A stretch of 64,000 nt of DNA, taken from positions 5,271-69,270 of the IMG/VR virus record IMGVR_UViG_3300037418_003152. One strand, 5' to 3'. Of this stretch, positions 18,311 through 29,399 are shown in pieces. This DNA comes from a virus (Duplodnaviria > Caudoviricetes). Positions within the stretch are counted from its first letter, which is position 1, and each line of letters opens with the position of its first letter. The translations under genes were made by a program, and so were the position numbers. The notes under the pieces are model-generated. The model was not told the origin of the DNA and did not search any database. It saw nothing but the letters and a program-made list of their open reading frames with translations.

Positions 18311-19684
18311 TCAGAGCGTCGAGACGACGTTGCGCAGGCGACCGACGAACTTCGGGGCCCGCAGCGCCAGGCAGGTGTCCGTGGCCAGGGCGAACGGGAG
18401 CTGGTCGGGGCTCGCGGTGGTGGGGTAGATCTGCAGCGGCGTCACGTCGCGGACGTAGGGGCGCAGCAGGATGTCGGGGTCGCGAGGGATCAGGTAGATG
18501 TCCTCGCCGCCGCCGATGCGCGGCTTCTGCGAGCCGCCGCCGACGTAGGCCGCGACCGGGTTGACCGGCGCGGTGGCCCCGTTCATCGGGATGAGCGTGG
18601 CCCCGGTGTCGATGATCGAGGTGGCGTAGACCGGGGTGATGCCGTCGCCGGTCACGCCGACCACGGCGTCGACGATGCCCAGCAGCGTCTCCGCGCCCGC
18701 CGCGGTGCCGCGGTAGACCCGGTAGGACTGCGGGGCGGCGCCTTCCATGCCCTGCGGGGTGGCGAAGCTCAGCGTGACCGTCGAGGTGCTGCCCGTGGTG
18801 ACCTGGGAGACCTCGGTCGAGGGGAGCAGCGTGCCCGCGCGGGCCATCACCGGCTCGATCACGTAGTAGTAGGTGCCGGCCGCGAGCGAGCCGCCGGTGG
18901 TGGCGGTCGCGGCGGTGACCACGCCCATCTGGGTCGCCAGCCGCGAGGACAGGAAGCTGGACTTGATCAGCGGGATGTCGCGGTAGGCGGTGACGTTCAG
19001 GCCCGCGGCGACCTCGGTCTCGCCGAGGAACCGCTGCAGCGGGGTCTCGTACTGCGCGATCTTCGCCGCCGCGGTGGAGCTCATCACGAACATCCACTGG
19101 TCGTTGAAGATGGGCATCGCGGAGTTGGACTCCACCATGTCGATCAGCAGGTCAAGGTGGCGCAGCGCCAGCGAGGCGCCGGCGACGTCGAGCGCGTTCT
19201 GCGGGTTCTGCGCGGTGGACGCGAACTGGCTGACCATGACGTCGAGGCCGTCGAACTGCGGCCACGGGCCGTTCTGGGTCGCGGCCGCGGAGCCCCACAG
19301 CATCGCCTGCTCGATGTCCCAGAGCAGACCCTGCATGCAGGACGCGATCTCCTGCGCGCGCAGGTCGCCGATCTGGTCGCGGGTGACCTCCTGGGCGAAC
19401 CCGGTCACGCCGCCGACGCTCTGGAGCAGCTTGATGACGAACTGGAACTGCTCGTAGACGCTGTTGCCCATCGGCCGGGCGCCGCCGTCGGTCACGAACC
19501 CGCCCGGGGCCCGGTAGGTGCGGCGGTTGAAGTAGTACGTGGTCGAGCTGATCTTCTTGGTCGGGGTGACGCGGATCAGCGGGGAGTAGCGCCGCTGGTA
19601 CTCCAGCAGCAGCGGGTCGATGACCTTCTGGATCAGGGCGGGAACGCCTGCGGCGGTCAACGCCTCGTCGAGCTCGGTAGCCAT
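18311..19684 (-). CDS. Major capsid protein (HK97 fold) with an inserted beta-sandwich domain
   Basis: RBS AAGGAG; after protease/scaffold; DIEQAMLWG, QFDGL motifs; internal GSLAAGTYYYVI...YRVYRGT segment. Confidence 0.85.
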   Translation of the reverse strand: MATELDEALTAAGVPALIQKVIDPLLLEYQRRYSPLIRVTPTKKISSTTYYFNRRTYRAPGGFVTDGGARPMGNSVYEQFQFVIKLLQSVGGVTGFAQEVTRDQIGDLRAQEIASCMQGLLWDIEQAMLWGSAAATQNGPWPQFDGLDVMVSQFASTAQNPQNALDVAGASLALRHLDLLIDMVESNSAMPIFNDQWMFVMSSTAAAKIAQYETPLQRFLGETEVAAGLNVTAYRDIPLIKSSFLSSRLATQMGVVTAATATTGGSLAAGTYYYVIEPVMARAGTLLPSTEVSQVTTGSTSTVTLSFATPQGMEGAAPQSYRVYRGTAAGAETLLGIVDAVVGVTGDGITPVYATSIIDTGATLIPMNGATAPVNPVAAYVGGGSQKPRIGGGEDIYLIPRDPDILLRPYVRDVTPLQIYPTTASPDQLPFALATDTCLALRAPKFVGRLRNVVSTL

Positions 19685-19821: not shown

Positions 19822-21405
19822 TCACTGGTCGGTGAAGACCGGGCCCCATGCCGCCGCGGCGCGGCGGGCGAACTCCTCGGGGGAGAGCTTGTGCAGCGGC
19901 GTCGCCTCGGGGTCGTCGACCTTGGCGGCGGCCTCGACCAGGCCGCGGCGCGGCGGCGGGCCGTAGGCCTCGAGCATCTGCTTGCGCAGCGTGTCGGTGG
20001 CCGCCTCGACGGCCGCGTTGACCCGCTGCGCGACGTCGGCCTCGGTGAGCCCAGCGGCCGGCGCGGGCGCGGCGGCCTCGGTGGCCGGGGTGGTCGCGGC
20101 GGGCGCGTTCTCGGCCGGCTCGGTGGCCGCCGGGGCGGGCGGGGCGATCTTGGCGGCCAGCGCGGTGGCGATCGCGTCGACGTCGGCCGCGTTCAGCGTC
20201 GGCGCGACGGCGGCGGGAGTGGGCTCGGCGGCGTCCTCGGTGGCGGCGCCACCGGCAGCGGCACCCTCGGGCGCCTCGGAGGCCGGCGCGGTCTCGGTGG
20301 TCTCGGCGGGCGCGCCCCCGGCGGGGTCGTCCTTCGGGGTCTTCTCGGACACGGTGTTCTCCTTGTCAGCGGCATCGGCCGCCTCGGTGTCGTCGACGGC
20401 AGCCAGGGAGGTGCCGCAGGCGGGGCAGAACATGGCGCCGTCCGGGAGGCCGGCGTTGCAGGAGGGGCACTGGCCGACGGTGTCGCCGTCGGGCAGGTCC
20501 AGGTCGTCGTCGTTGTCGGGGTCCAGGACGCGCAGCGCGGCGTCGTAGGCCTTGCCGAGCTGGGTGGCCGCGGCGGCGACGTCGTCGTTGGACAGGCCCC
20601 AGGCGTCGATGTCGATGTCGACGGGGCCCTGCCAGCCCGAGACCGCGACGTGGGCCTCGCGGACCTTGGCGAGCATCGCGTCGTAGCGCTCGCGGGCCTG
20701 CTCGGTGGTCTCGGTGGTCTCGGTCTCCTGGGTCTGTGCGTCATCGCCCGTCGCGTCGCCCGTCTCGGTGGCGGCCTCGGTGGCGGCCTGCGCGGCCGGG
20801 CTGCCGGGGCGCGGCGGGACGGCCGCGGGCGTCGGCGTGCTCGTGGTGTGCACGAGCCGGGAGTCGGACATGACGGAGACCTCCACGGACTCGGTGATCG
20901 GGGTACGGGCGTCGGACTCGGTGGTGGTGCGCGAGGTGCCGGTGATCCGGGCCGCGGCGACGCCGGGGGACTTGGTGAAGTCGATGCCGTCGATCTCCAG
21001 GTCGTCGCCGGTCTCGCACATCACGCCGTCGACCTCGACGCGGCGCACCGGGCCGAGCCACCAGCCGCGGATGGACACCGCGTCGAGCACCCGGCGCCCG
21101 TCGGGGCCGGGTTCGATCGCGGAGGCGATGTCGCGTCCGGCGGCGGTGTCGATGAGGTAGCCGTGCAGCCGGGCCCGGTGGGTCTGGGGGTCCAGCTCGG
21201 CGGTGACGACCCGGGCGCACAGCTCCTTGGAGTCGTCGCCGGCGGCGTGGTGGGACAGCATCGTGACCGGCAGCGCCTCGGGGTCGGCGAGGCGCGCGAC
21301 GAGCCGGTTGTAGGCCTTCTCGATGATCTCCGCGGTGTAGAGCCGGTTGTTCGCGCTGACGCCCGGCGCGAGGAACCAGGACTCGATGGTGCCGATCACG
21401 GCCAT
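19822..21405 (-). CDS. Prohead protease-scaffold fusion with a zinc ribbon
   Basis: NNRLYTAE, SHH, VSIRG, GIDFTKSPGVAAA protease-like N-terminus; CPSC...FCPACG ribbon; A/P/E-rich scaffold. Confidence 0.75.
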   Translation of the reverse strand: MAVIGTIESWFLAPGVSANNRLYTAEIIEKAYNRLVARLADPEALPVTMLSHHAAGDDSKELCARVVTAELDPQTHRARLHGYLIDTAAGRDIASAIEPGPDGRRVLDAVSIRGWWLGPVRRVEVDGVMCETGDDLEIDGIDFTKSPGVAAARITGTSRTTTESDARTPITESVEVSVMSDSRLVHTTSTPTPAAVPPRPGSPAAQAATEAATETGDATGDDAQTQETETTETTEQARERYDAMLAKVREAHVAVSGWQGPVDIDIDAWGLSNDDVAAAATQLGKAYDAALRVLDPDNDDDLDLPDGDTVGQCPSCNAGLPDGAMFCPACGTSLAAVDDTEAADAADKENTVSEKTPKDDPAGGAPAETTETAPASEAPEGAAAGGAATEDAAEPTPAAVAPTLNAADVDAIATALAAKIAPPAPAATEPAENAPAATTPATEAAAPAPAAGLTEADVAQRVNAAVEAATDTLRKQMLEAYGPPPRRGLVEAAAKVDDPEATPLHKLSPEEFARRAAAAWGPVFTDQ

Positions 21406-21492: not shown

Positions 21493-22035
21493 GTGGGACC
21501 TTTAATGGCGGTGGTCGTCGTGAAGCGATGGGCGAAATACACGCTTGTGGGGGTAGCTGGGCTGTTCGTCCTGGGCGGGATCGCGTACGCGGTCGACCCG
21601 CCCGCGCCCGCGCCCGCGGTGGCCACGGGCTCACCCGCGCCCACCCAGCCACCCACCCAGCCGCCGCCCACCCAGGCACCCGCGGGTGCGCCCGCGGCCC
21701 CGGTGGCCCCGGCACCCGAGCCCGCGCCCGCGGCACCCGCGGCTGAGCACGACCGTGAGCAGTGCCGGGTGACCGGGATGAACGGCGGGGTCTTCTACAT
21801 CACGATCGCCAGCGCGGCCGCGCACGACTTCTCCGCGTGCGAGGGTGCGGAGCAGATGACCCCGAACATCGACTCGCTGCTGGACAACCCCGGCATGGAC
21901 AGGCGCTGCCTGACCGAGACCTCGCAGGACGTCGAGCTCTACAACGCCTTGATCGGGGTCTACTCCGACACCAAGAAGGCCAACCTGGCCGCGGCCAAGG
22001 ACTGGTGCGACTCGGCCGGATTCGGCAACGAGTGA
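21493..22035 (+). CDS. Membrane-anchored exported protein, antisense to the head operon (moron-like)
   Basis: N-terminal TM, Pro-rich linker, 4-Cys globular C-domain. Confidence 0.7.
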   Translation: MGPLMAVVVVKRWAKYTLVGVAGLFVLGGIAYAVDPPAPAPAVATGSPAPTQPPTQPPPTQAPAGAPAAPVAPAPEPAPAAPAAEHDREQCRVTGMNGGVFYITIASAAAHDFSACEGAEQMTPNIDSLLDNPGMDRRCLTETSQDVELYNALIGVYSDTKKANLAAAKDWCDSAGFGNE

Positions 22036-22065: not shown

Positions 22066-22245
22066 ATGGCCACCCACCCCTGTGACCACCCGGACTACCT
22101 GCTCGAGGAGACCCGGATCCGCGGCGTGGACGCCTGCTGGTGCGGGGCGCTGGTGCTGACCGGGCCGCCCGCCACCCGGGTGGTCCTCGCCCCGTCGAGC
22201 GCGACGACCCCGGCCCCGGAGCGCGGGCGCGTCAGCTCGGGGTGA
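22066..22245 (+). CDS. Small hypothetical protein (59 aa)
   Basis: Manual ORF MATHPCDHPDYLLEETRIRGVDACWCGALV...; not in the track. Confidence 0.4.
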   Translation: MATHPCDHPDYLLEETRIRGVDACWCGALVLTGPPATRVVLAPSSATTPAPERGRVSSG

Positions 22246-23497
22246 CCCAGCAGCGGCAGCCCCCGTGCGGGACGTCGGGCAGCTCGAACAGCTTCCACGG
22301 GCTCCGGGCCTGATAGTCCTCGCAGGTGCTGCACGCGCCTTCGGCCATGCAGTTCCACCACATCTCGGTCAGCCCGACGGTGTCGTAGAGCGACGCGGAG
22401 GCCTCCAGGTAGGTCTGGGAGACCTGCTGGTCGAGGTAGTACAGCGCCCCGGCGCCCCCGGCGATCAGCGCGACGACGGCCTCGTCGGTGACCGGGTGCT
22501 CGTCGGTGTGGCGGGCCAGCAGCGTCGCGAGGTCGCCGCCCATGCCGCCCTGCTGGGCCTCGATCCACTCGCGCGGGTCGAACGGGTCCGGCAGCGGGGA
22601 GTCGTCCGGGTCCACCGGGATGTCGCCCTGGGTCAGGGCGTGCGCGGCGGCCGCGGCACCGGCCAGCGCCGCGGCGGTGTGCGCGTCGCGCACCGCGGTC
22701 TGCCAGTCCAGGTCGACGCCAAGGATGCGGGCCTGACGGGCGATCTCGGCGGCCAGCACGGCGCGCACCTCGGCGGGGTCGACCTGCGGGTCGTAGGCCA
22801 GCCGCGCGGAGGTGACGTCGAACCCGTCGCCGAGCGCGGCGAGCACCGCCATCAGCGCGGCGCCGGCCGCGACGTGGGTGCGGTCGCGCTGGCGTGACAC
22901 CGCGACCAGCGCGGCCGCGGCGATCGCGGCCAGCTCCTCCTCGGTGGGCTCGCCGTCCGGGTCGGCTTCGGTGACCGCGGGCGCGGTCTCGGTGGCCGCG
23001 GCGCCCAGGGGCAGCTCGTGCCAGACCGAGCCGAGCGCGACGACGAGCCGGTCGAGGGTGACCGGGCCGGTGTGGTCGAGCGCGGCCGCGTCGAGCCCGT
23101 AGCCGGCGGTGGCGTGCGGAATCCACGGGGCGTGCTGCGCGGGCAGCTCGGCGCCGAGCACGGTGGCCGCGACGTCGACGACCTGGCGTTGCAGCGGCGC
23201 CAGGTCCGGGCAGTCTCCGACCAGGTGCACCGCGCACTGGTCCTCGGCGTCGCCGGGGGCGAACGTGGCGTGCCCGACCACCCGGGCCGACAGCGGGCCG
23301 GGCATGGCCGAGGCCAGCGCCCCGACCGCGGTGACCAGCTGGTCGGCGCGTTCGGCCGGCCAGCCGGTGACGTCGTCGCCGAGGTAGGCCAGGGTGAGGT
23401 GGATCTGGTCGAAGCGGTCCCCGCCGGGCACGGTCAGCGCCTGCGGGTCGGCGGGGAGCAGCGCGATCATGCCGCCGGTGTGCGGTCCGTCAGCCAC
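22232..23497 (-). CDS. 2H phosphoesterase fused to a MuF-like head morphogenesis domain
   Basis: Two HxT motifs (IHLTLAYLG; WIPHATAGY); C-terminal CSTC...PHGGCRC MuF/gp7-type motif; between portal and protease. Confidence 0.8.
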   Translation of the reverse strand: MADGPHTGGMIALLPADPQALTVPGGDRFDQIHLTLAYLGDDVTGWPAERADQLVTAVGALASAMPGPLSARVVGHATFAPGDAEDQCAVHLVGDCPDLAPLQRQVVDVAATVLGAELPAQHAPWIPHATAGYGLDAAALDHTGPVTLDRLVVALGSVWHELPLGAAATETAPAVTEADPDGEPTEEELAAIAAAALVAVSRQRDRTHVAAGAALMAVLAALGDGFDVTSARLAYDPQVDPAEVRAVLAAEIARQARILGVDLDWQTAVRDAHTAAALAGAAAAAHALTQGDIPVDPDDSPLPDPFDPREWIEAQQGGMGGDLATLLARHTDEHPVTDEAVVALIAGGAGALYYLDQQVSQTYLEASASLYDTVGLTEMWWNCMAEGACSTCEDYQARSPWKLFELPDVPHGGCRCWVTPS

Positions 23498-23921
23498 CGC
23501 TGCGCGAGCTCGACCGGCGCGGGGTCGCCTTCGGCGCCGGCTTGGCCTCGGCGCCGTCGGCGGGCACCGCGGACAGATTCGCGCTGCCCGCCTTGGCCGT
23601 GCGGCTGCGCGGCTTGGCCGCCGCGGGCTTGGCCAGCGCCTGGAGCGTTGTGGTCAGCGCGTCCCCGATGTACTCCCGGGTGGCCACGTGGTTCTTGTCG
23701 TCGACGTCGGCGGCCACCTGCGCTTCGACGCGCCCGGCGGCGATCTCGGAGTCGGTCACCCCGAGCCGCTCGAGGATCTGGTCGCGGGCCGCCTCGACCT
23801 GGGTGGTGATGTCGTCGCGGATCAGCCGGCGCAGCGTGACCGCGGCGAGCACCGTGGCCACGCCGACCAGCAGGATCGCGACGACCACGATGAGCAGGGA
23901 GATCAGGGGAGTCGGGTACAT
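23490..23921 (-). CDS. Single-TM membrane protein with a basic tail
   Basis: RBS GAAGGAG, ATG 23921 (MYPTPLISLLIVVV). Confidence 0.6.
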   Translation of the reverse strand: MYPTPLISLLIVVVAILLVGVATVLAAVTLRRLIRDDITTQVEAARDQILERLGVTDSEIAAGRVEAQVAADVDDKNHVATREYIGDALTTTLQALAKPAAAKPRSRTAKAGSANLSAVPADGAEAKPAPKATPRRSSSRSGG

Positions 23922-23953
23922 CGGGGCTCCTTCGCAGGTGTGGGGGGAGGGGG

Positions 23954-24781
23954 TCACCCGGAGCGGTGCGGGGTGACGAGGTACTGCCCGGCGCCGGTGC
24001 GGTGGCGGTGTCGGCCGCGCTGCAGGATCTGGTGGTAGATGTAGCGCTGGCGGTGCCGCAGCAGCATCCAGTGGTAGCGGTGGTGGAACGTGTGCTCGTG
24101 GCGTGCGGAGTGCACGCGGGTGTAGCGCCCCACGGTCTTGGCCCGGGACGGGCCGAAGTGGCGCAGCTTGAATGCGGGGCGGGCCGAGCGGGCCGCGGAG
24201 ACGGTCGCGGTGTGGCGCACGCTGGCGCGCCGCAGCCGGGCCTTGATCGCGGCCGGGGTCTGTGACCGGGTGCCGCCGCGGCCGGCGACCACCGGGCGGC
24301 GTGACCCGACGGGCCGACCATGCGCGGCCGAGCGGGCGCGGGCCAGGTTGCGGATCGCCGCGGCCTTCTGCGCGGCGGTACGGGGGCGGCCCCGGGCCAC
24401 CACCCTTGCCCGGGCCAGGTTTGCGCGCGACGCGGCCACCTGGGCCGCCGTACGGGGCCGCCCACGCTCCGCGGCGCGGGCCTTGGCCAGGTTCGCGCGG
24501 GAGGCCGCGAGCTGAGCCGCGGACCGGGGGCGGGTGCGCGCGACCACGCGGGCCCGGGCCAGGTTCGCCCGCGACGCGGCGAGCTGCGCGGGAGTGCGGG
24601 GACGGGTCCGGGCCACGGCGCGGGCCTTGGCCAGCGCCGCGCGGGAGGCGGCGAGCTGCGCCGCGCTCCGCGGGCGGCTGCGGGCCGCGGCGCGGGCCTT
24701 GGCCAGGTTCGCCCGGGCCGCGGCGAGTTGGGCCGCGGTACGGGGGCGGCTGGGTGACTTCTTGCGAGTCGCCACAGCCAC
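23954..24781 (-). CDS. Extremely basic Arg/Ala-rich repeat protein (histone H1/protamine-like)
   Basis: Six 24-aa repeats, only two acidic residues in 275 aa, His-rich C-terminus; fills the gap between neighbouring genes. Confidence 0.7.
   Translation of the reverse strand: MAVATRKKSPSRPRTAAQLAAARANLAKARAAARSRPRSAAQLAASRAALAKARAVARTRPRTPAQLAASRANLARARVVARTRPRSAAQLAASRANLAKARAAERGRPRTAAQVAASRANLARARVVARGRPRTAAQKAAAIRNLARARSAAHGRPVGSRRPVVAGRGGTRSQTPAAIKARLRRASVRHTATVSAARSARPAFKLRHFGPSRAKTVGRYTRVHSARHEHTFHHRYHWMLLRHRQRYIYHQILQRGRHRHRTGAGQYLVTPHRSG
24320..24751 (-). repeat. Six 72-bp coding tandem repeats (RPR[T/S]AAQLAASRANLA[K/R]AR)
   Basis: Directly visible in translation and DNA. Confidence 0.9.
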
Positions 24782-24790
24782 CCCCGCACC

Positions 24791-24895
24791 TCAGCGGTAG
24801 ATGACCTTCCGGACCAGCACCGCCGCCTTGTCCGCCGTCATCGGGCCCGAGGGGCCCGGCGCGGGCGGTGGCGGCGGCGCCGGCTGGTCGGCCAT
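24791..24895 (-). CDS. Micro-ORF (34 aa) MADQPAPPPPPAPGPSGPMTADKAAVLVRKVIYR
   Basis: TGATG overlap with upstream stop; fills the gap exactly. Confidence 0.5.
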   Translation of the reverse strand: MADQPAPPPPPAPGPSGPMTADKAAVLVRKVIYR

Positions 24896-25542
24896 CAGCT
24901 GGTGGTGGTGTCAGCCGAGCCGGTGCCCGAGCCGTCGGCCGGGGCCGCGACCGAGGTGTCGGTGGCCTGGGCGTCGGTGGCCGGGGCCGCGCCGGTGTCA
25001 GCGGCCGAGGCGTCGGCGGATGCCTCGGAGGTGCTGGCGGAGGCGTCGTCGGCGGACACGGTGGTCACCTCGCCCCCGGTCGGGGCCGAGGGCAGCGGGT
25101 CCTGCGCACCGGTGCCGGTGTCGCTGGACGGGGCCGCCACGTCGCCCGCGGCGGCGGGCGCCGACGGGTCCGCGACGTTGGTGTCCGCGGCCGGGGGCAC
25201 CACCGCCGGGGCGGTCGGGGTGTACGCGGAGACCGTGTCGCGCAGGTTCTGCACGAGCACGGTGAGCCGGTTGTGGCCGTCGACGAGCTCCTGGTGCTCG
25301 CCGGGCTCGGCGTTCGCGGCCGCGGTCAGGGTGTCGATCTGCTGCTTCTGCGCAGACAGCTCGGACTCGACCTCGTTGAGCAGGCCCTCAAGTGCGCCGA
25401 TGTCATCGCTGATGAAACTCATGACCCTCTCCATCTCCTGTCGGAGTCGGCCGATCCGGTGCCGGAAGTCGGCGCTGATGTCCTGCACGAGCCCGGAGAC
25501 CCGTGCACGTTCCTCGTAGAACTCCTCGCGCGTGACGTGCAT
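24895..25542 (-). CDS. Coiled-coil protein with a low-complexity acidic tail
   Basis: TGATG coupling to the portal stop. Confidence 0.6.
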   Translation of the reverse strand: MHVTREEFYEERARVSGLVQDISADFRHRIGRLRQEMERVMSFISDDIGALEGLLNEVESELSAQKQQIDTLTAAANAEPGEHQELVDGHNRLTVLVQNLRDTVSAYTPTAPAVVPPAADTNVADPSAPAAAGDVAAPSSDTGTGAQDPLPSAPTGGEVTTVSADDASASTSEASADASAADTGAAPATDAQATDTSVAAPADGSGTGSADTTTS

Positions 25543-27134
25543 CAGTCCTCCTGAGCTGCGCCGGCGGCGACGAGACGCCGGTAGTGCTCGGTGACCCGGG
25601 CCCGGTACCGGCGGGCGGTCTCAGTGCTCGGGGCGGGCGCCTTGGCGGTGCGGGTGCCCGCCGCCGACGGGGGAGGAGACGCCGGCGACGGGCCTTTCTT
25701 CGGCGGGGCGGCCGAATCTTGATCGGCCCCGGCGCCGTCGTCGGCGGCGTCGGGGTCGTCTGGGTCGGGCTGGCCTGGATCGGGCGGGCCCGGATCGGGA
25801 GGCACCAGAGAATCGATCTTGGCTTGGGACAGGTCGGCGATCTGCTCCCACAGCACGAGGTTCTGCCGGTCGATCAGCACGTGGACATCCCCGGCGGGGC
25901 CGATGGTCGGCTTGCCGATCTCGGCGAGGTAGTCGTTGAGCGTCCAGGACCCGTTGTGCAGCCGCATGTCGCGGATGTCCTCGACCACCTTGTCGTCGCG
26001 CCAGTCGACCTCGGCGAAGACGATCTCCCAGCCCTCGATCTTGAAGGCCTCGCGGGTGAGGGCGAAGTTCAGCTTCTCCAGCAGGATCTGCTCGATCGGC
26101 CCGCAGGTGTTGACCTTGAAGGTCTTGTCCTGCGAGGTGCCGGTGCCGCCGCCGATGTTGCCCGAGTCGATGACGCCGACCTTCGCGGGCGGCACCCCGG
26201 CCTCGGACAGGATCGTGTCGCGGCAGGAGTCCTGGATCGCGAGGTAGTCGCCGATCTTGCCCAGGCCCAGCTCGTTGAGCGTGGCGCCGCCGCGGGTGGT
26301 GATCGGGTTGCCGATGTTGGCGGTGCCCAGGTTGCGCACCGAGTACTGGCCGCGCCAGGCGCGCACCTCGTCGGGCTGAACCTCCAGCGGGAAGTCCATG
26401 TGGATGTGCGGCGGGTCGCCCTTGCGCATCGTCTCCTTGATGCACGCCGCGGTGAACAGCCAGATCGTGACCGGCAGCAGCGCCTTCTGCGCGATGCCCA
26501 TCCCGTAGAGCGACCCCTTCGGGGCGTCCATCGAGATGTGGATGATCTGGTGCGGCTCGAAATGCACCTCGCGGGAGTCGATCGCCTGGTCGTAGCCCAG
26601 GACGACGCCGTGCTCGTCGGCGTCCACGGTCATCGTCGCCGGGTCGAGCGGGTAGAGCGCCACGGGCAGCCCGAGCAGCCACACCACCTCGATGAACGCG
26701 TCCCCGTAGATGCCCATGTCGGTCACCGAGCCGCGCAGCAGCTGGATGATGTCCATGTGCGGGTTGCAGAACCGCAGCAGGTTCTGCAGCGCCCGGACCT
26801 GCTTGGGCGGGTTGTCCGGGGAGACGTCGCCCTGGGCCTCGGAGGTGGGCAGCACCTGCAGCCCGCCCGCGGTGACGGTGCGCGCGATCGCGTCGATCGG
26901 CGCCGACAGCCACGGACACCCGGTGTAGGCGACGTACAGGCTGGTCATGAACGCGGCCCGGCCGTCGGGGTAGTCCCCGCCGGGGTTGAGCTTGTTCGCC
27001 CCGCCGAAGGGCACGTCGGAGTCGAAACCCATCCGGGCGGCGGCGGTGGCCATCTGGGACGGCGCCGGGGCCGGCGCCAGCTCGGTGATCGCGGACTCGT
27101 AGAGCGGGGCGATGGTTCCCGCGGAGGTGAGCAT
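25542..27134 (-). CDS. Portal protein
   Basis: YGDAFIEV, LYPLDPATM, FEPHQIIHI, GVPPAKVG, WTLNDYLAEIGKP motifs (HK97-like portal). Confidence 0.92.
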   Translation of the reverse strand: MLTSAGTIAPLYESAITELAPAPAPSQMATAAARMGFDSDVPFGGANKLNPGGDYPDGRAAFMTSLYVAYTGCPWLSAPIDAIARTVTAGGLQVLPTSEAQGDVSPDNPPKQVRALQNLLRFCNPHMDIIQLLRGSVTDMGIYGDAFIEVVWLLGLPVALYPLDPATMTVDADEHGVVLGYDQAIDSREVHFEPHQIIHISMDAPKGSLYGMGIAQKALLPVTIWLFTAACIKETMRKGDPPHIHMDFPLEVQPDEVRAWRGQYSVRNLGTANIGNPITTRGGATLNELGLGKIGDYLAIQDSCRDTILSEAGVPPAKVGVIDSGNIGGGTGTSQDKTFKVNTCGPIEQILLEKLNFALTREAFKIEGWEIVFAEVDWRDDKVVEDIRDMRLHNGSWTLNDYLAEIGKPTIGPAGDVHVLIDRQNLVLWEQIADLSQAKIDSLVPPDPGPPDPGQPDPDDPDAADDGAGADQDSAAPPKKGPSPASPPPSAAGTRTAKAPAPSTETARRYRARVTEHYRRLVAAGAAQED

Positions 27135-27752: not shown

Positions 27753-29399
27753 TCAGGTCTGGGACCAGATCGAGAACCGGGACAGGTCCGCGGGTAGCGC
27801 CCGGTCCTCGGCGTTCCCGACCGGGGCGGACAGGTCGCGCGGGTTGAAGGCGAACTGCCCGCGCAGCACCAGGCCCTCGGCGCTCTCGCCCTCGTCGAAG
27901 ATCAGCGACGGCGTGCCGCCGATGTCCATCAGCAAATAGCGGAGGGCGTCGTAGTGGTGGTCCTTGGCCTTGGTGTCGACGTCCTCGGGCTTGCGCGGGT
28001 CCCGGGGCAGGTTCTCCATCGTCGACATCAGCTCGGGGCAGCTGTGGTCGAGCACGTGCAGCATCGGGCAGGTCGACCAGCCCAGCGCCCGGTGGTGCGC
28101 GCACGCCGGGCCCTCGGCCAGGTACTGGTGGATGCGCTGCTTGCCGCCGAACCGGTCGTTGTCGGCCTTGCGCAGCGGCGCGCCCTCCAGCGCGAACTGC
28201 GAGGCCGGGGGCAGCGCCGATCCTGACCGGCCCCACATCGCCGGGTCCGCCGCACGGGAGGCTGGGGGAGTGGTGCCCTCGCAGTTGATGATCCGGCGGG
28301 CCTGCTCGCGTTCCGGGGTCTGGATCATCGTCAGCTCGCGGTAGAGCCAGACCCGGCCGTCGGCGTCGCGCGCGCCCAGCAGGTAGGCCGAGGGCGCGGT
28401 CCAGCCGTAGTCGAGCCCGGCGTAGCGCGGCCACGACGGCGGCACGTCGAACGGCGGGACGAGAATCCTGTCGCGCTTCCAGTCGCCGAACGCGCCGTCG
28501 GGCATGACCGACCAGTCGCCGTCGAGGATGCGCCGGCGCAGCTCGGGGTCGGTGATGCCTTCGAGGGTCTTGGCGTAGTCGCCGACGAACGGGTTGTCGC
28601 GCACCTTGGCCGGGATGAAGATGCGGCGCCGGCCGGCGTCGTCGATCAGCTCGACGCGGCCGTAGTCGGTGGCGTCGACCCAGCCCTCTTTGACCACGCC
28701 GTGCCCGACGAATCCGGGGTTGGACGCCGAGCGCACCCCGAGGCACGGCACGCCGGGCACACCGGAGCGGACACGGGTGTAGAGGAACTCGACGACGTCG
28801 GGGTCGATCGTGGTGCGCTCGTCGAGGATCAGCAGGTTGATTTCCGCCGAGGACAGCGCGGAGGCTTCCTGCATGTTCTTGGCGTGGGCGAAGGTCAGCA
28901 CCGACCCGCCGGGGAACCGCAGCTCGTAGGTCGAGCCGTTCCACACCGCGCCCAGCGAGGCCCCGAACCCGTAGCGGGCCAGCATGCGCAGCACCGACTG
29001 GTTCAGCTCGGGGAACGACCGCCGGAACCAGAACACCTGGATCCCGGGGTACCGCACGCAGGTGCGCAGCGCGAGGATCAGCAAAGCGGCCGACTTCCCG
29101 CCGCCACCCGCGCCGCCGTAGAGCACGTCGAGTTCTTCGTCGGGCAGGTCGATGAACCGCTCCTGCGGGCACTGCCCGCACCGCGGCGGGATCGGCTCGC
29201 CGGCCGCGCGCGCCTCGTACTGCACCTTGCAGTTCGGGGTGAACCCGAGGATGGCCAGGACGTCGGCCTTGGCCATGCGCTCGGCGATCTGGCGGTCCCG
29301 CTGGCGGCGCAGCTCGGCGAGGCGCTGCAGCATCTCCAGCGGCGCCTCGACGACGCGCACGACCTCTTCGTTGCGGGGACGAGCGGGACGACGAGCCAT
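27753..29399 (-). CDS. terL: Terminase large subunit
   Basis: Walker A YGGAGGGGKS, Walker B ILDE, SASNPG, nuclease GLDYG and DHHYDALRY. Confidence 0.95.
   Translation of the reverse strand: MARRPARPRNEEVVRVVEAPLEMLQRLAELRRQRDRQIAERMAKADVLAILGFTPNCKVQYEARAAGEPIPPRCGQCPQERFIDLPDEELDVLYGGAGGGGKSAALLILALRTCVRYPGIQVFWFRRSFPELNQSVLRMLARYGFGASLGAVWNGSTYELRFPGGSVLTFAHAKNMQEASALSSAEINLLILDERTTIDPDVVEFLYTRVRSGVPGVPCLGVRSASNPGFVGHGVVKEGWVDATDYGRVELIDDAGRRRIFIPAKVRDNPFVGDYAKTLEGITDPELRRRILDGDWSVMPDGAFGDWKRDRILVPPFDVPPSWPRYAGLDYGWTAPSAYLLGARDADGRVWLYRELTMIQTPEREQARRIINCEGTTPPASRAADPAMWGRSGSALPPASQFALEGAPLRKADNDRFGGKQRIHQYLAEGPACAHHRALGWSTCPMLHVLDHSCPELMSTMENLPRDPRKPEDVDTKAKDHHYDALRYLLMDIGGTPSLIFDEGESAEGLVLRGQFAFNPRDLSAPVGNAEDRALPADLSRFSIWSQT

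Follow-up and report, generated by a model that had tools for sequence, protein, structure and literature searches.

We describe here a gene in a 64-kb stretch of DNA (the window) from the 69,270-bp IMG/VR virus record IMGVR_UViG_3300037418_003152, which belongs to an uncultured phage. The gene lies at 22232-23497 on the minus strand; it is real and joins a 2H phosphoesterase to a MuF/gp7-type minor head protein. We imagine that its product is loaded into the capsid, is ejected with the phage genome, and hydrolyzes the messengers of host immunity; we put the probability of this whole chain at roughly 0.4. The 2H-MuF or 2H-portal design and the idea that it counters immune signaling are already published (Iyer et al. 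2017, 2022), and the design is common in actinobacterial phages. What is particular here is that the 2H domain precedes a MuF-like domain so divergent that Pfam misses it, and that this order is rare. The original prediction for this DNA, made from the letters alone, had proposed a packaged enzyme directed at immune messengers or at the repair of RNA ends. The capsid loading is well supported by comparison, and the idea as a whole is not new. The features of the gene are as follows.

22232-23497, minus strand: 2H-MuF gene, from its open reading frame (ORF), translation, G+C content at third codon positions (GC3), and homologues
23003-23470, minus strand: 2H phosphoesterase domain, residues 10-165, from phrog_2659, PF13563, and the predicted fold
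23393-23401, minus strand: first catalytic motif, H33-L-T (residues 33-35), its His invariant in the clade alignment
23108-23116, minus strand: second catalytic motif, H128-A-T (residues 128-130, within PHATAGYG), its His invariant in the clade alignment
22949-23002, minus strand: interdomain linker rich in Ala, Thr, Glu, and Pro, predicted to be disordered (predicted local distance difference test score [pLDDT] below 50 at residues 158-171 of the 412-residue model)
22235-22948, minus strand: MuF/gp7-like minor head protein domain, residues 184-421, from profile searches, hhalign, and BFVD
22322-22333, minus strand: CxxC pair (CSTC, residues 389-392), both Cys invariant in homologue alignments A1 and A3
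22250-22267, minus strand: HGGCRC (residues 411-416; PHGGCRC, 410-416), the MuF-type H..CRC signature, with H, C, R, and C invariant in A1 and A3

The window has a G+C content of 70 to 77%, as in a high-GC phage. GC3 is 0.97 for the frame of the fusion, against 0.58 to 0.69 for overlapping ORFs, and thus 22232-23497 is the coding frame. Among the ORFs set aside is one of 440 codons at 23467-24789 (minus strand), which overlaps the start of the fusion; with a GC3 of 0.69, it is noncoding. If started at the GTG at 23497, the fusion protein has 421 amino acids. The ATG at 23470 is where the database gene call (P0002, identical, 412 amino acids) and every homologue start, and judged by these sequences it is the more likely true start; residues are numbered throughout in the 421-residue form. 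Five full-length homologues, at about 50% identity, were found, and the length of the linker varies among homologues. The exact architecture is rare, with about six 90%-identity clusters in a search of 5.8 billion proteins. The gene is therefore as originally predicted, down to its exact coordinates, and the two motif sets named in that prediction, a pair of intact HxT motifs in the N-terminal ~165 residues and a C-terminal CxxC...HxxCRC end, were borne out as well, by HLT at 33-35 and HAT at 128-130 within a 2H fold and by CSTC at 389-392 and HGGCRC at 411-416 in a domain homologous to MuF-type proteins.

The N-terminal domain is a genuine and probably active 2H phosphoesterase, and the evidence goes well beyond what chance motifs would give. 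It matches phrog_2659 (E 1.4e-31) and the 2H part of phrog_18402 (E 8e-30). Pfam 2_5_RNA_ligase2 (PF13563) was found at E 6e-6, about 0.3 bits below its gathering score; scanned alone, the domain scores 29.1 bits, above it. Both catalytic His residues are present in 29 of 29 aligned clade domains, and both Thr residues are conserved across the clade, as are the flanking signatures LGDDVTGW, PHxTAGYG, and GPVxFDR. A third HAT, at residues 76-78, is neither conserved nor catalytic. An AlphaFold model built on ten homologues has a pLDDT of 86; in it, the domain opens directly at strand 1 and is followed by the disordered linker. Searched against the PDB with Foldseek, the model gives an E of 1e-4, and 20 2H entries reach a VIA Z of at least 8. 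The best solved match by VIA is the Deinococcus radiodurans CPDase (5h7f; Z 15.3, root mean square deviation 3.8, 150 residues aligned), followed by Pyrococcus horikoshii LigT (1vgj, 14.2), human Usb1 (5v1m, 13.6), 4qak (13.3), Bacillus subtilis YjcG (12.7), and the rotavirus VP3 phosphodiesterase (11.3). Phage Acb1 (7t27, 122 residues) reaches 9.5, and the phage BCSR5 phosphodiesterase and the penguinpox cyclic GMP-AMP (cGAMP) phosphodiesterase reach 9.2.

We accept the C-terminal domain as a divergent MuF/gp7-type protein on the strength of its homologues. Stand-alone proteins of 240 to 280 amino acids (P0008-P0011) correspond to its last ~240 residues, and a profile of the domain run against 1.8 billion representatives collected 300 proteins, many of about 300 amino acids, with nearly full profile coverage. 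Among ten distant matches, five carry Phage_Mu_F (PF04233) at their C termini and across the full model, the best at E 9e-8 and 33.3 bits, with a cut-off of 29.6. Alignment by hhalign to these MuF-positive proteins gives a probability of 99.9 and an E of 7e-33 over 222 columns, in which the CxxC...P.H..CRC end is invariant. Foldseek against BFVD, for the C-terminal part, leads to proteins labeled "minor capsid protein," "capsid morphogenesis protein," and "MuF-like minor capsid protein." Folded alone on a five-sequence alignment, the domain reached a pLDDT of just 41, and the fold searches were hence run on the full-length model. Among solved structures, nothing beyond generic helical bundles (Z of about 5) matched the domain; no solved MuF structure was found for comparison, so this lack of a match says nothing about novelty. 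The gene also occupies the place of a MuF-type gene, after the portal and before the protease/scaffold candidate and the capsid genes, as it does in the related contigs L006 and L008, and no second MuF was detectable anywhere in the 69-kb record.

Relatives indicate how the two domains came together. The gene order of the fusion-bearing relatives (L006 and L012) is conserved, and in L006 it runs from the large terminase through the portal, three small genes, the 2H-MuF gene, a reverse gene, and a 541-residue protein to the major capsid protein. In the sister contig L008, this slot is occupied by the same MuF-like gene with no 2H domain nearby, from which we conclude that the 2H domain is an optional N-terminal addition. 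The gene that follows the stand-alone MuF-like gene in L008 was examined as a split-off 2H domain and rejected as unrelated. The same 2H clade, at 40 to 53% identity, stands at the start or in the middle of head proteins of 750 to 980 amino acids (of the phrog_18402, phrog_859, and phrog_29860 types). In Streptomyces phage phiSAJS1 gp17 it follows a Pfam MuF domain, and in P0012 it precedes a MuF-like end; Gordonia phage Stormageddon and Mycobacterium phage Tonenili encode it as a stand-alone protein next to capsid or portal genes. By tblastn, the domain is found in 353 cultured actinophage records. These proteins (for example, MelBins gp19 in L001 and Stormageddon gp17 in L003) are labeled "RNA ligase," "head/capsid maturation protease," "portal protein," or "hypothetical protein," and for a single phage the GenBank and RefSeq entries sometimes disagree. 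The 2H domain is not properly described by any of these names, and the GenBank term "RNA ligase" is a historical misnomer.

A C-terminal 2H domain is also present in 6 of the 120 closest portal homologues (P0200, P0206, P0232, P0260, P0279, and P0293). In a tree of 2H domains, five of these six form a deep lineage separate from the MuF- and protease-borne clade, implying that carriers in the capsid interior acquired 2H domains more than once. Within that clade, MuF-borne and protease-type-borne domains are intermixed. This suggests that carriers were swapped several times; a single origin of the MuF fusion would be compatible with the well-supported branches taken alone. Because these do not prove multiple swaps, we limit the claim to intermixed carriers. 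Independent capture by capsid-interior carriers, as read from these sequences, points to a function that would need residence in the capsid.

Work by others on cultured phages bears directly on that residence. The virion proteome of Gordonia phage GMA2 (Dyson et al. 2015, PMC4524720, S5 Table) lists Orf10, an 883-residue protein encoded after the presumed portal. It has a 2H domain at residues 731-880 (hidden Markov model E 9e-27), with HLT at 756 and HIT at 836; this domain is 32% identical to the 2H domain of the window (E 1e-14). One of the listed peptides spans PHITAV at residue 835, inside the 2H domain, and thus a 2H domain of this broad clade (the phrog_2659 type) is physically present in purified virions. 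Like the window protein, Orf10 belongs to the head module; it differs in bearing its 2H domain at the C terminus of a much larger protein, and the proteome consists of peptide lists without copy numbers. Pfam MuF does not match Orf10, and PF23474 (Acb1) scores 19.6 bits on it, below the cut-off of 27. With the MuF homology, the optional nature of the 2H domain, and its recurrence on capsid-interior carriers, the GMA2 peptide makes it likely, by analogy, that the protein of the window resides in the capsid.

The model for the carrier is phage SPP1, in which the portal targets gp7 to the procapsid interior; gp7-like proteins bear toxins that have been proposed to be delivered (PMC6316719). SPP1 gp7 and the MuF toxins resemble the window protein in being minor head proteins encoded near the portal, with a C..C...H..CRC end and a capacity to carry an extra enzymatic domain. 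In the toxins, however, the effector is C-terminal to MuF and the cargo is a toxin, whereas here it is an N-terminal phosphodiesterase. By analogy with gp7, the MuF/gp7-like domain would be the carrier, docking on the portal during procapsid assembly and taking a few copies of the protein into the capsid interior, with the 2H domain as enzymatic cargo on its flexible linker. At infection, the protein would leave the capsid with the DNA, bringing a metal-independent phosphodiesterase (His33 and His128) into the cell before phage expression. The likeliest task of the cargo would then be to hydrolyze defense second messengers, such as cGAMP-type dinucleotides, cyclic oligoadenylates, or similar molecules, with a 2',3'-cyclic phosphate as the intermediate. 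Of these elements, we infer the docking on the portal, the ejection into the cell, and the substrate.

Fusions of this kind were described by Iyer et al. 2017 (PMC5512222), who found 2H domains fused to MuF or portal proteins and proposed either an RNase action, which they named first, or degradation of defense nucleotides. Later, such fusions were taken to suggest packaging in the head and injection, countering immune signaling by nucleotides or oligonucleotides (Iyer et al. 2022, PMC9503650). The window gene shares with them the two domain families, the head-gene context, and the logic of a packaged and injected protein. Theirs are computational descriptions; in the window gene, the 2H domain precedes a divergent MuF-like domain that direct Pfam searches miss. 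The combination that defines the head-packaged effector fusions, or polyvalent proteins, of Iyer et al. 2017, a conflict domain with a virion carrier among late virion genes, is found here as well, although the two-domain protein of the window is the simple MuF-fusion form and not a large polyvalent protein.

Streptomyces phage phiSAJS1 gp17 (1256 amino acids; L002, 5014-8784) is similar in its place just after the portal, its Phage_Mu_F match (E 3e-10), and its 2H clade, and is unlike the window protein in having the reversed order (MuF at 119-240, 2H at 339-505), followed by a protease-type head module. Its GenBank label is "portal protein," when in fact it comprises MuF, 2H, and the protease-type module. 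Its second 2H motif reads H-I-C rather than HxT, and this copy may be altered or inactive.

The case for a messenger as the substrate comes in part from phage enzymes that have been assayed. Doherty et al. 2025 (bioRxiv 10.1101/2025.08.21.671373) catalogued 75 phage 2H phosphodiesterases and assayed 16 of them against 18 messengers. Their "2H PDE 16" is Arthrobacter phage Kharcho gp87, which cleaves 3'3'-cGAMP via GpA>p in vitro. We find that gp87, annotated "RNA ligase," is a fusion of 2H with a Peptidase_S78_2 prohead protease in the head module (L013, 11100-14057), two genes on from gp85, a Pfam-positive MuF protein (E 5e-9) that follows the portal; the text of the preprint does not discuss the packaging or the head-module context of gp87. 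Kharcho gp87 thus resembles the window protein as a 2H domain on a head-assembly protein in a portal-MuF-protease block; it differs in that its carrier is the protease and that the isolated domain was assayed. The closest cultured relative of the 2H domain itself is Stormageddon gp17 (48% identity over 153 amino acids, E 7e-37), which is of the same clade and likewise encoded next to capsid genes, but is an unfused protein of 172 amino acids. It is "2H PDE 15" of the same preprint and was purified and assayed on the 18-messenger panel; the result appears there in figures only. The cGAMP activity of a head-fused relative, together with our finding no RNA ligase or RtcB in the record and the observation of Iyer et al. 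2017 that this 2H type never lies next to RNA ligases (PMC5512222), leads us to favor immune messengers as the substrate.

Several points weigh against this reading. On the carrier side, neither Pfam Phage_Mu_F nor the NCBIfam MuF model TIGR01641 matches the window protein directly, and among 10 close homologues just 2 match Phage_Mu_F (E 0.04), which makes the MuF assignment a transitive one, via distant homologues. On the side of the enzyme, a Pfam scan of the N-terminal domain at E up to 10 returned only 2_5_RNA_ligase2 and LigT_PEase, with no match to Acb1 (PF23474); the first motif, HLTLAYLG, is LigT-like; and structurally the domain is nearer to LigT/CPDase and Usb1 (Z of 13 to 15) than to Acb1 or the other viral messenger phosphodiesterases (Z of 9.2 to 11.3). 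Kharcho gp87 is just 26% identical to the 2H domain of the window, and in the assays of Doherty et al. 2025 substrate range tracked structural group, two groups cleaving 0 of the 18 messengers. A 2H domain fused to a portal would remain in the capsid unless cleaved off. In addition, immune messengers arise some time after the onset of infection, and an early gene would serve equally well. Finally, the record has an estimated CheckV completeness of about 75%, so the absence of RNA-repair genes is weak evidence. That the cargo is ejected with the DNA and hydrolyzes immune messengers, or a still-unknown messenger, from the first moment of infection seems to us somewhat unlikely.

Acb1 illustrates both the attraction and the limits of the comparison. 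It is a phage enzyme that destroys cyclic oligonucleotide signals, and the T4/FBB1 Acb1 (Hobbs et al. 2022, PMC9117128; PDB 7T26-7T27) has the same 2H fold and two catalytic His residues as the window domain. Unlike that domain, which is fused and lacks a PF23474 match, Acb1 is a stand-alone protein of about 150 amino acids with a C-terminal lid. The likeness to T4 Acb1 that had first been suggested therefore holds at the level of the 2H superfamily, with LigT/CPDase the closer structures and no Acb1 match in Pfam. The comparison by structure prediction and Foldseek that had been proposed as a check supports the 2H fold (Foldseek to Acb1, E 1.6e-3), with Acb1 at a Z of 9.5 against 13 to 15 for LigT/CPDase. 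A phmmer search against PDB sequences, Acb1 chains included, returned nothing at E up to 1. We know of no evidence that Acb1 is packaged, and to our knowledge the known anti-signaling proteins are not known to be pre-made. A literature search for a link between Acb1 and MuF and for packaged phosphoesterases against the cyclic oligonucleotide-based antiphage signaling system (CBASS) gave nothing relevant.

The main rival is a capsid-loaded 2H cargo that acts on RNA rather than on small messengers. Such an enzyme could be a 2',3'-cyclic phosphodiesterase working on the ends left by metal-independent host RNases (anticodon nucleases or MazF-type toxins), or an RNase like Usb1, trimming host RNAs as infection begins. 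The top structural matches, all of the CPDase/LigT type or Usb1, and the LigT-like first motif fit this possibility. LigT/ThpR-type enzymes (Escherichia coli LigT, 5LDM; CPDase, 5H7F; 1VGJ; YjcG, 2D4G) share a Z of 12.7 to 15.3 and the Pfam family 2_5_RNA_ligase2 with the window domain, but at 15 to 22% identity, and they are free-standing cellular enzymes without a link to virions. The sole NCBIfam match, to the ThpR equivalog TIGR02258 (E 0.05), points the same way, if faintly: at 13.5 bits it is far below the cut-off of 65.7. A pre-made enzyme would suit defenses that act at once, and RNase action was the reading that Iyer et al. 2017 put first (PMC5512222). Nevertheless, RtcB, RNA_ligase, and T4-type Rnl1 were all sought in the 69-kb record and not found, and no RNA ligase, RtcB, or kinase partner for RNA repair was seen there; Iyer et al. 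2017 likewise saw no RNA ligase beside this 2H type. A few copies per virion would be little for bulk RNA repair, and a head-protease-fused relative cleaves cGAMP. On balance, we regard an RNA target as rather unlikely, though it is the most serious of the competitors to a messenger-hydrolyzing cargo.

A second possibility is that the 2H domain, rather than being an injected effector, does its work in the capsid or in the cell that produces the phage. One option is late synthesis along with the head proteins, followed by action in the cytoplasm while the domain is still attached to an assembly protein; another is a part in assembling the head or packaging the genome, after which it would be kept in the capsid or degraded. 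Consistent with this, 2H domains also occur on portal C termini and on protease/scaffold-type proteins, which are normally retained or destroyed in the capsid, and they are always coexpressed with late genes. No 2H cargo is known to be ejected, a point that also counts against delivery as such. The 2H peptide in GMA2 virions, however, implies that the domain is not simply degraded; no packaging or assembly step is known to require a 2H phosphoesterase, sister phages assemble without one, and MuF-type carriers are the classic vehicle for delivered effectors (PMC6316719). We consider this explanation quite unlikely. Least probable is that the 2H domain is dead or purely structural (for example, a plug that binds RNA, DNA, or nucleotides), or that the protein is unpackaged since its divergent C-terminal domain has lost MuF function: the missing direct Phage_Mu_F match, the HxC of phiSAJS1 gp17, and the lack of a solved fold for the C-terminal domain would agree with it, but the clade conserves both His residues, both Thr residues, and flanking motifs such as GPVxFDR, the C-terminal domain retains all the invariant residues of the MuF end (CxxC, P, H, and CRC) with an E of 7e-33 to MuF-positive proteins, and the position in the head module is conserved.

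The gene map of this minus-strand head module, revised locally with a GC3 frame plot, is as follows.

27753-29399, minus strand: large terminase (phrog_2, E 1e-27)
between the large terminase and portal genes, minus strand: gene for a 190-residue protein (gene map)
25542-27134, minus strand: portal protein (PF04860, E 5e-20; phrog_12, E 2e-24), the expected docking partner of the MuF-type protein
24895-25542, minus strand: first small gene in the interval from the portal to the 2H-MuF gene (GC3 frame plot)
23954-24781, minus strand: second small gene in that interval, for a 275-residue protein (GC3 0.92)
23490-23957, minus strand: third small gene, for a 155-residue protein with an N-terminal membrane helix (GC3 frame plot)
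21493-22035, plus strand: 180-residue membrane-anchored, Cys-containing protein (gene map)
19822-21405, minus strand: 527-residue zinc-ribbon protein, candidate prohead protease/scaffold (Zn_Ribbon_1, E 1.5e-7)
18311-19684, minus strand: major capsid protein (phrog_752, E 4e-35; SU10_MCP, E 7e-6)
after the major capsid protein gene, minus strand: adaptor and tail-completion genes (gene map)

The placement of the fusion between portal and protease, as first described, is thus correct in order but not in adjacency: three small genes lie on the portal side and the plus-strand gene on the other, where the protease nature of the 527-residue protein is suggested by ESM Atlas leads only. These are to Peptidase_S78/S77 clusters, with scores of about 0.9 over roughly the first 170 residues, and we treat them as a lead; no PHROG matched the protein. 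Its zinc ribbon (CPSC...CPAC) is embedded in long stretches rich in Ala, Pro, Glu, and Thr, and from its sequence the protein may be a protease fused to a scaffold and bearing an unusual zinc ribbon. The 155-residue protein has a weak homologue in L008 (E 4e-4). The plus-strand gene opposes the direction of the head operon, and its product has an N-terminal membrane helix, a Pro-rich linker, and a Cys-containing domain. In relatives, the same slot holds a reverse-strand gene (L006, 8307-8666; L008, 2944-3441), the product of which in L008 matches Pfam Mycobact_memb. It looks like a conserved "moron" slot.

The window gene itself contributes just one further domain order, a rare one, to a design already predicted in 2017 and 2022. 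The questions of delivery and substrate are better addressed in cultured relatives, and the clade is common enough (the 353 actinophage records) to offer easy test cases in Gordonia, Mycobacterium, and Streptomyces phages. If the 2H domain is delivered with the genome, defenses based on nucleotide signaling (CBASS, type III CRISPR, and Pycsar-like systems) or on RNA targeting would be disarmed before phage expression. Were it both ejected and messenger hydrolyzing, it would be the first demonstrated virion-delivered anti-signaling enzyme, and the 2H domains that actinophages carry on MuF, protease, and portal proteins would then represent a general preemptive strategy against nucleotide-based immunity.

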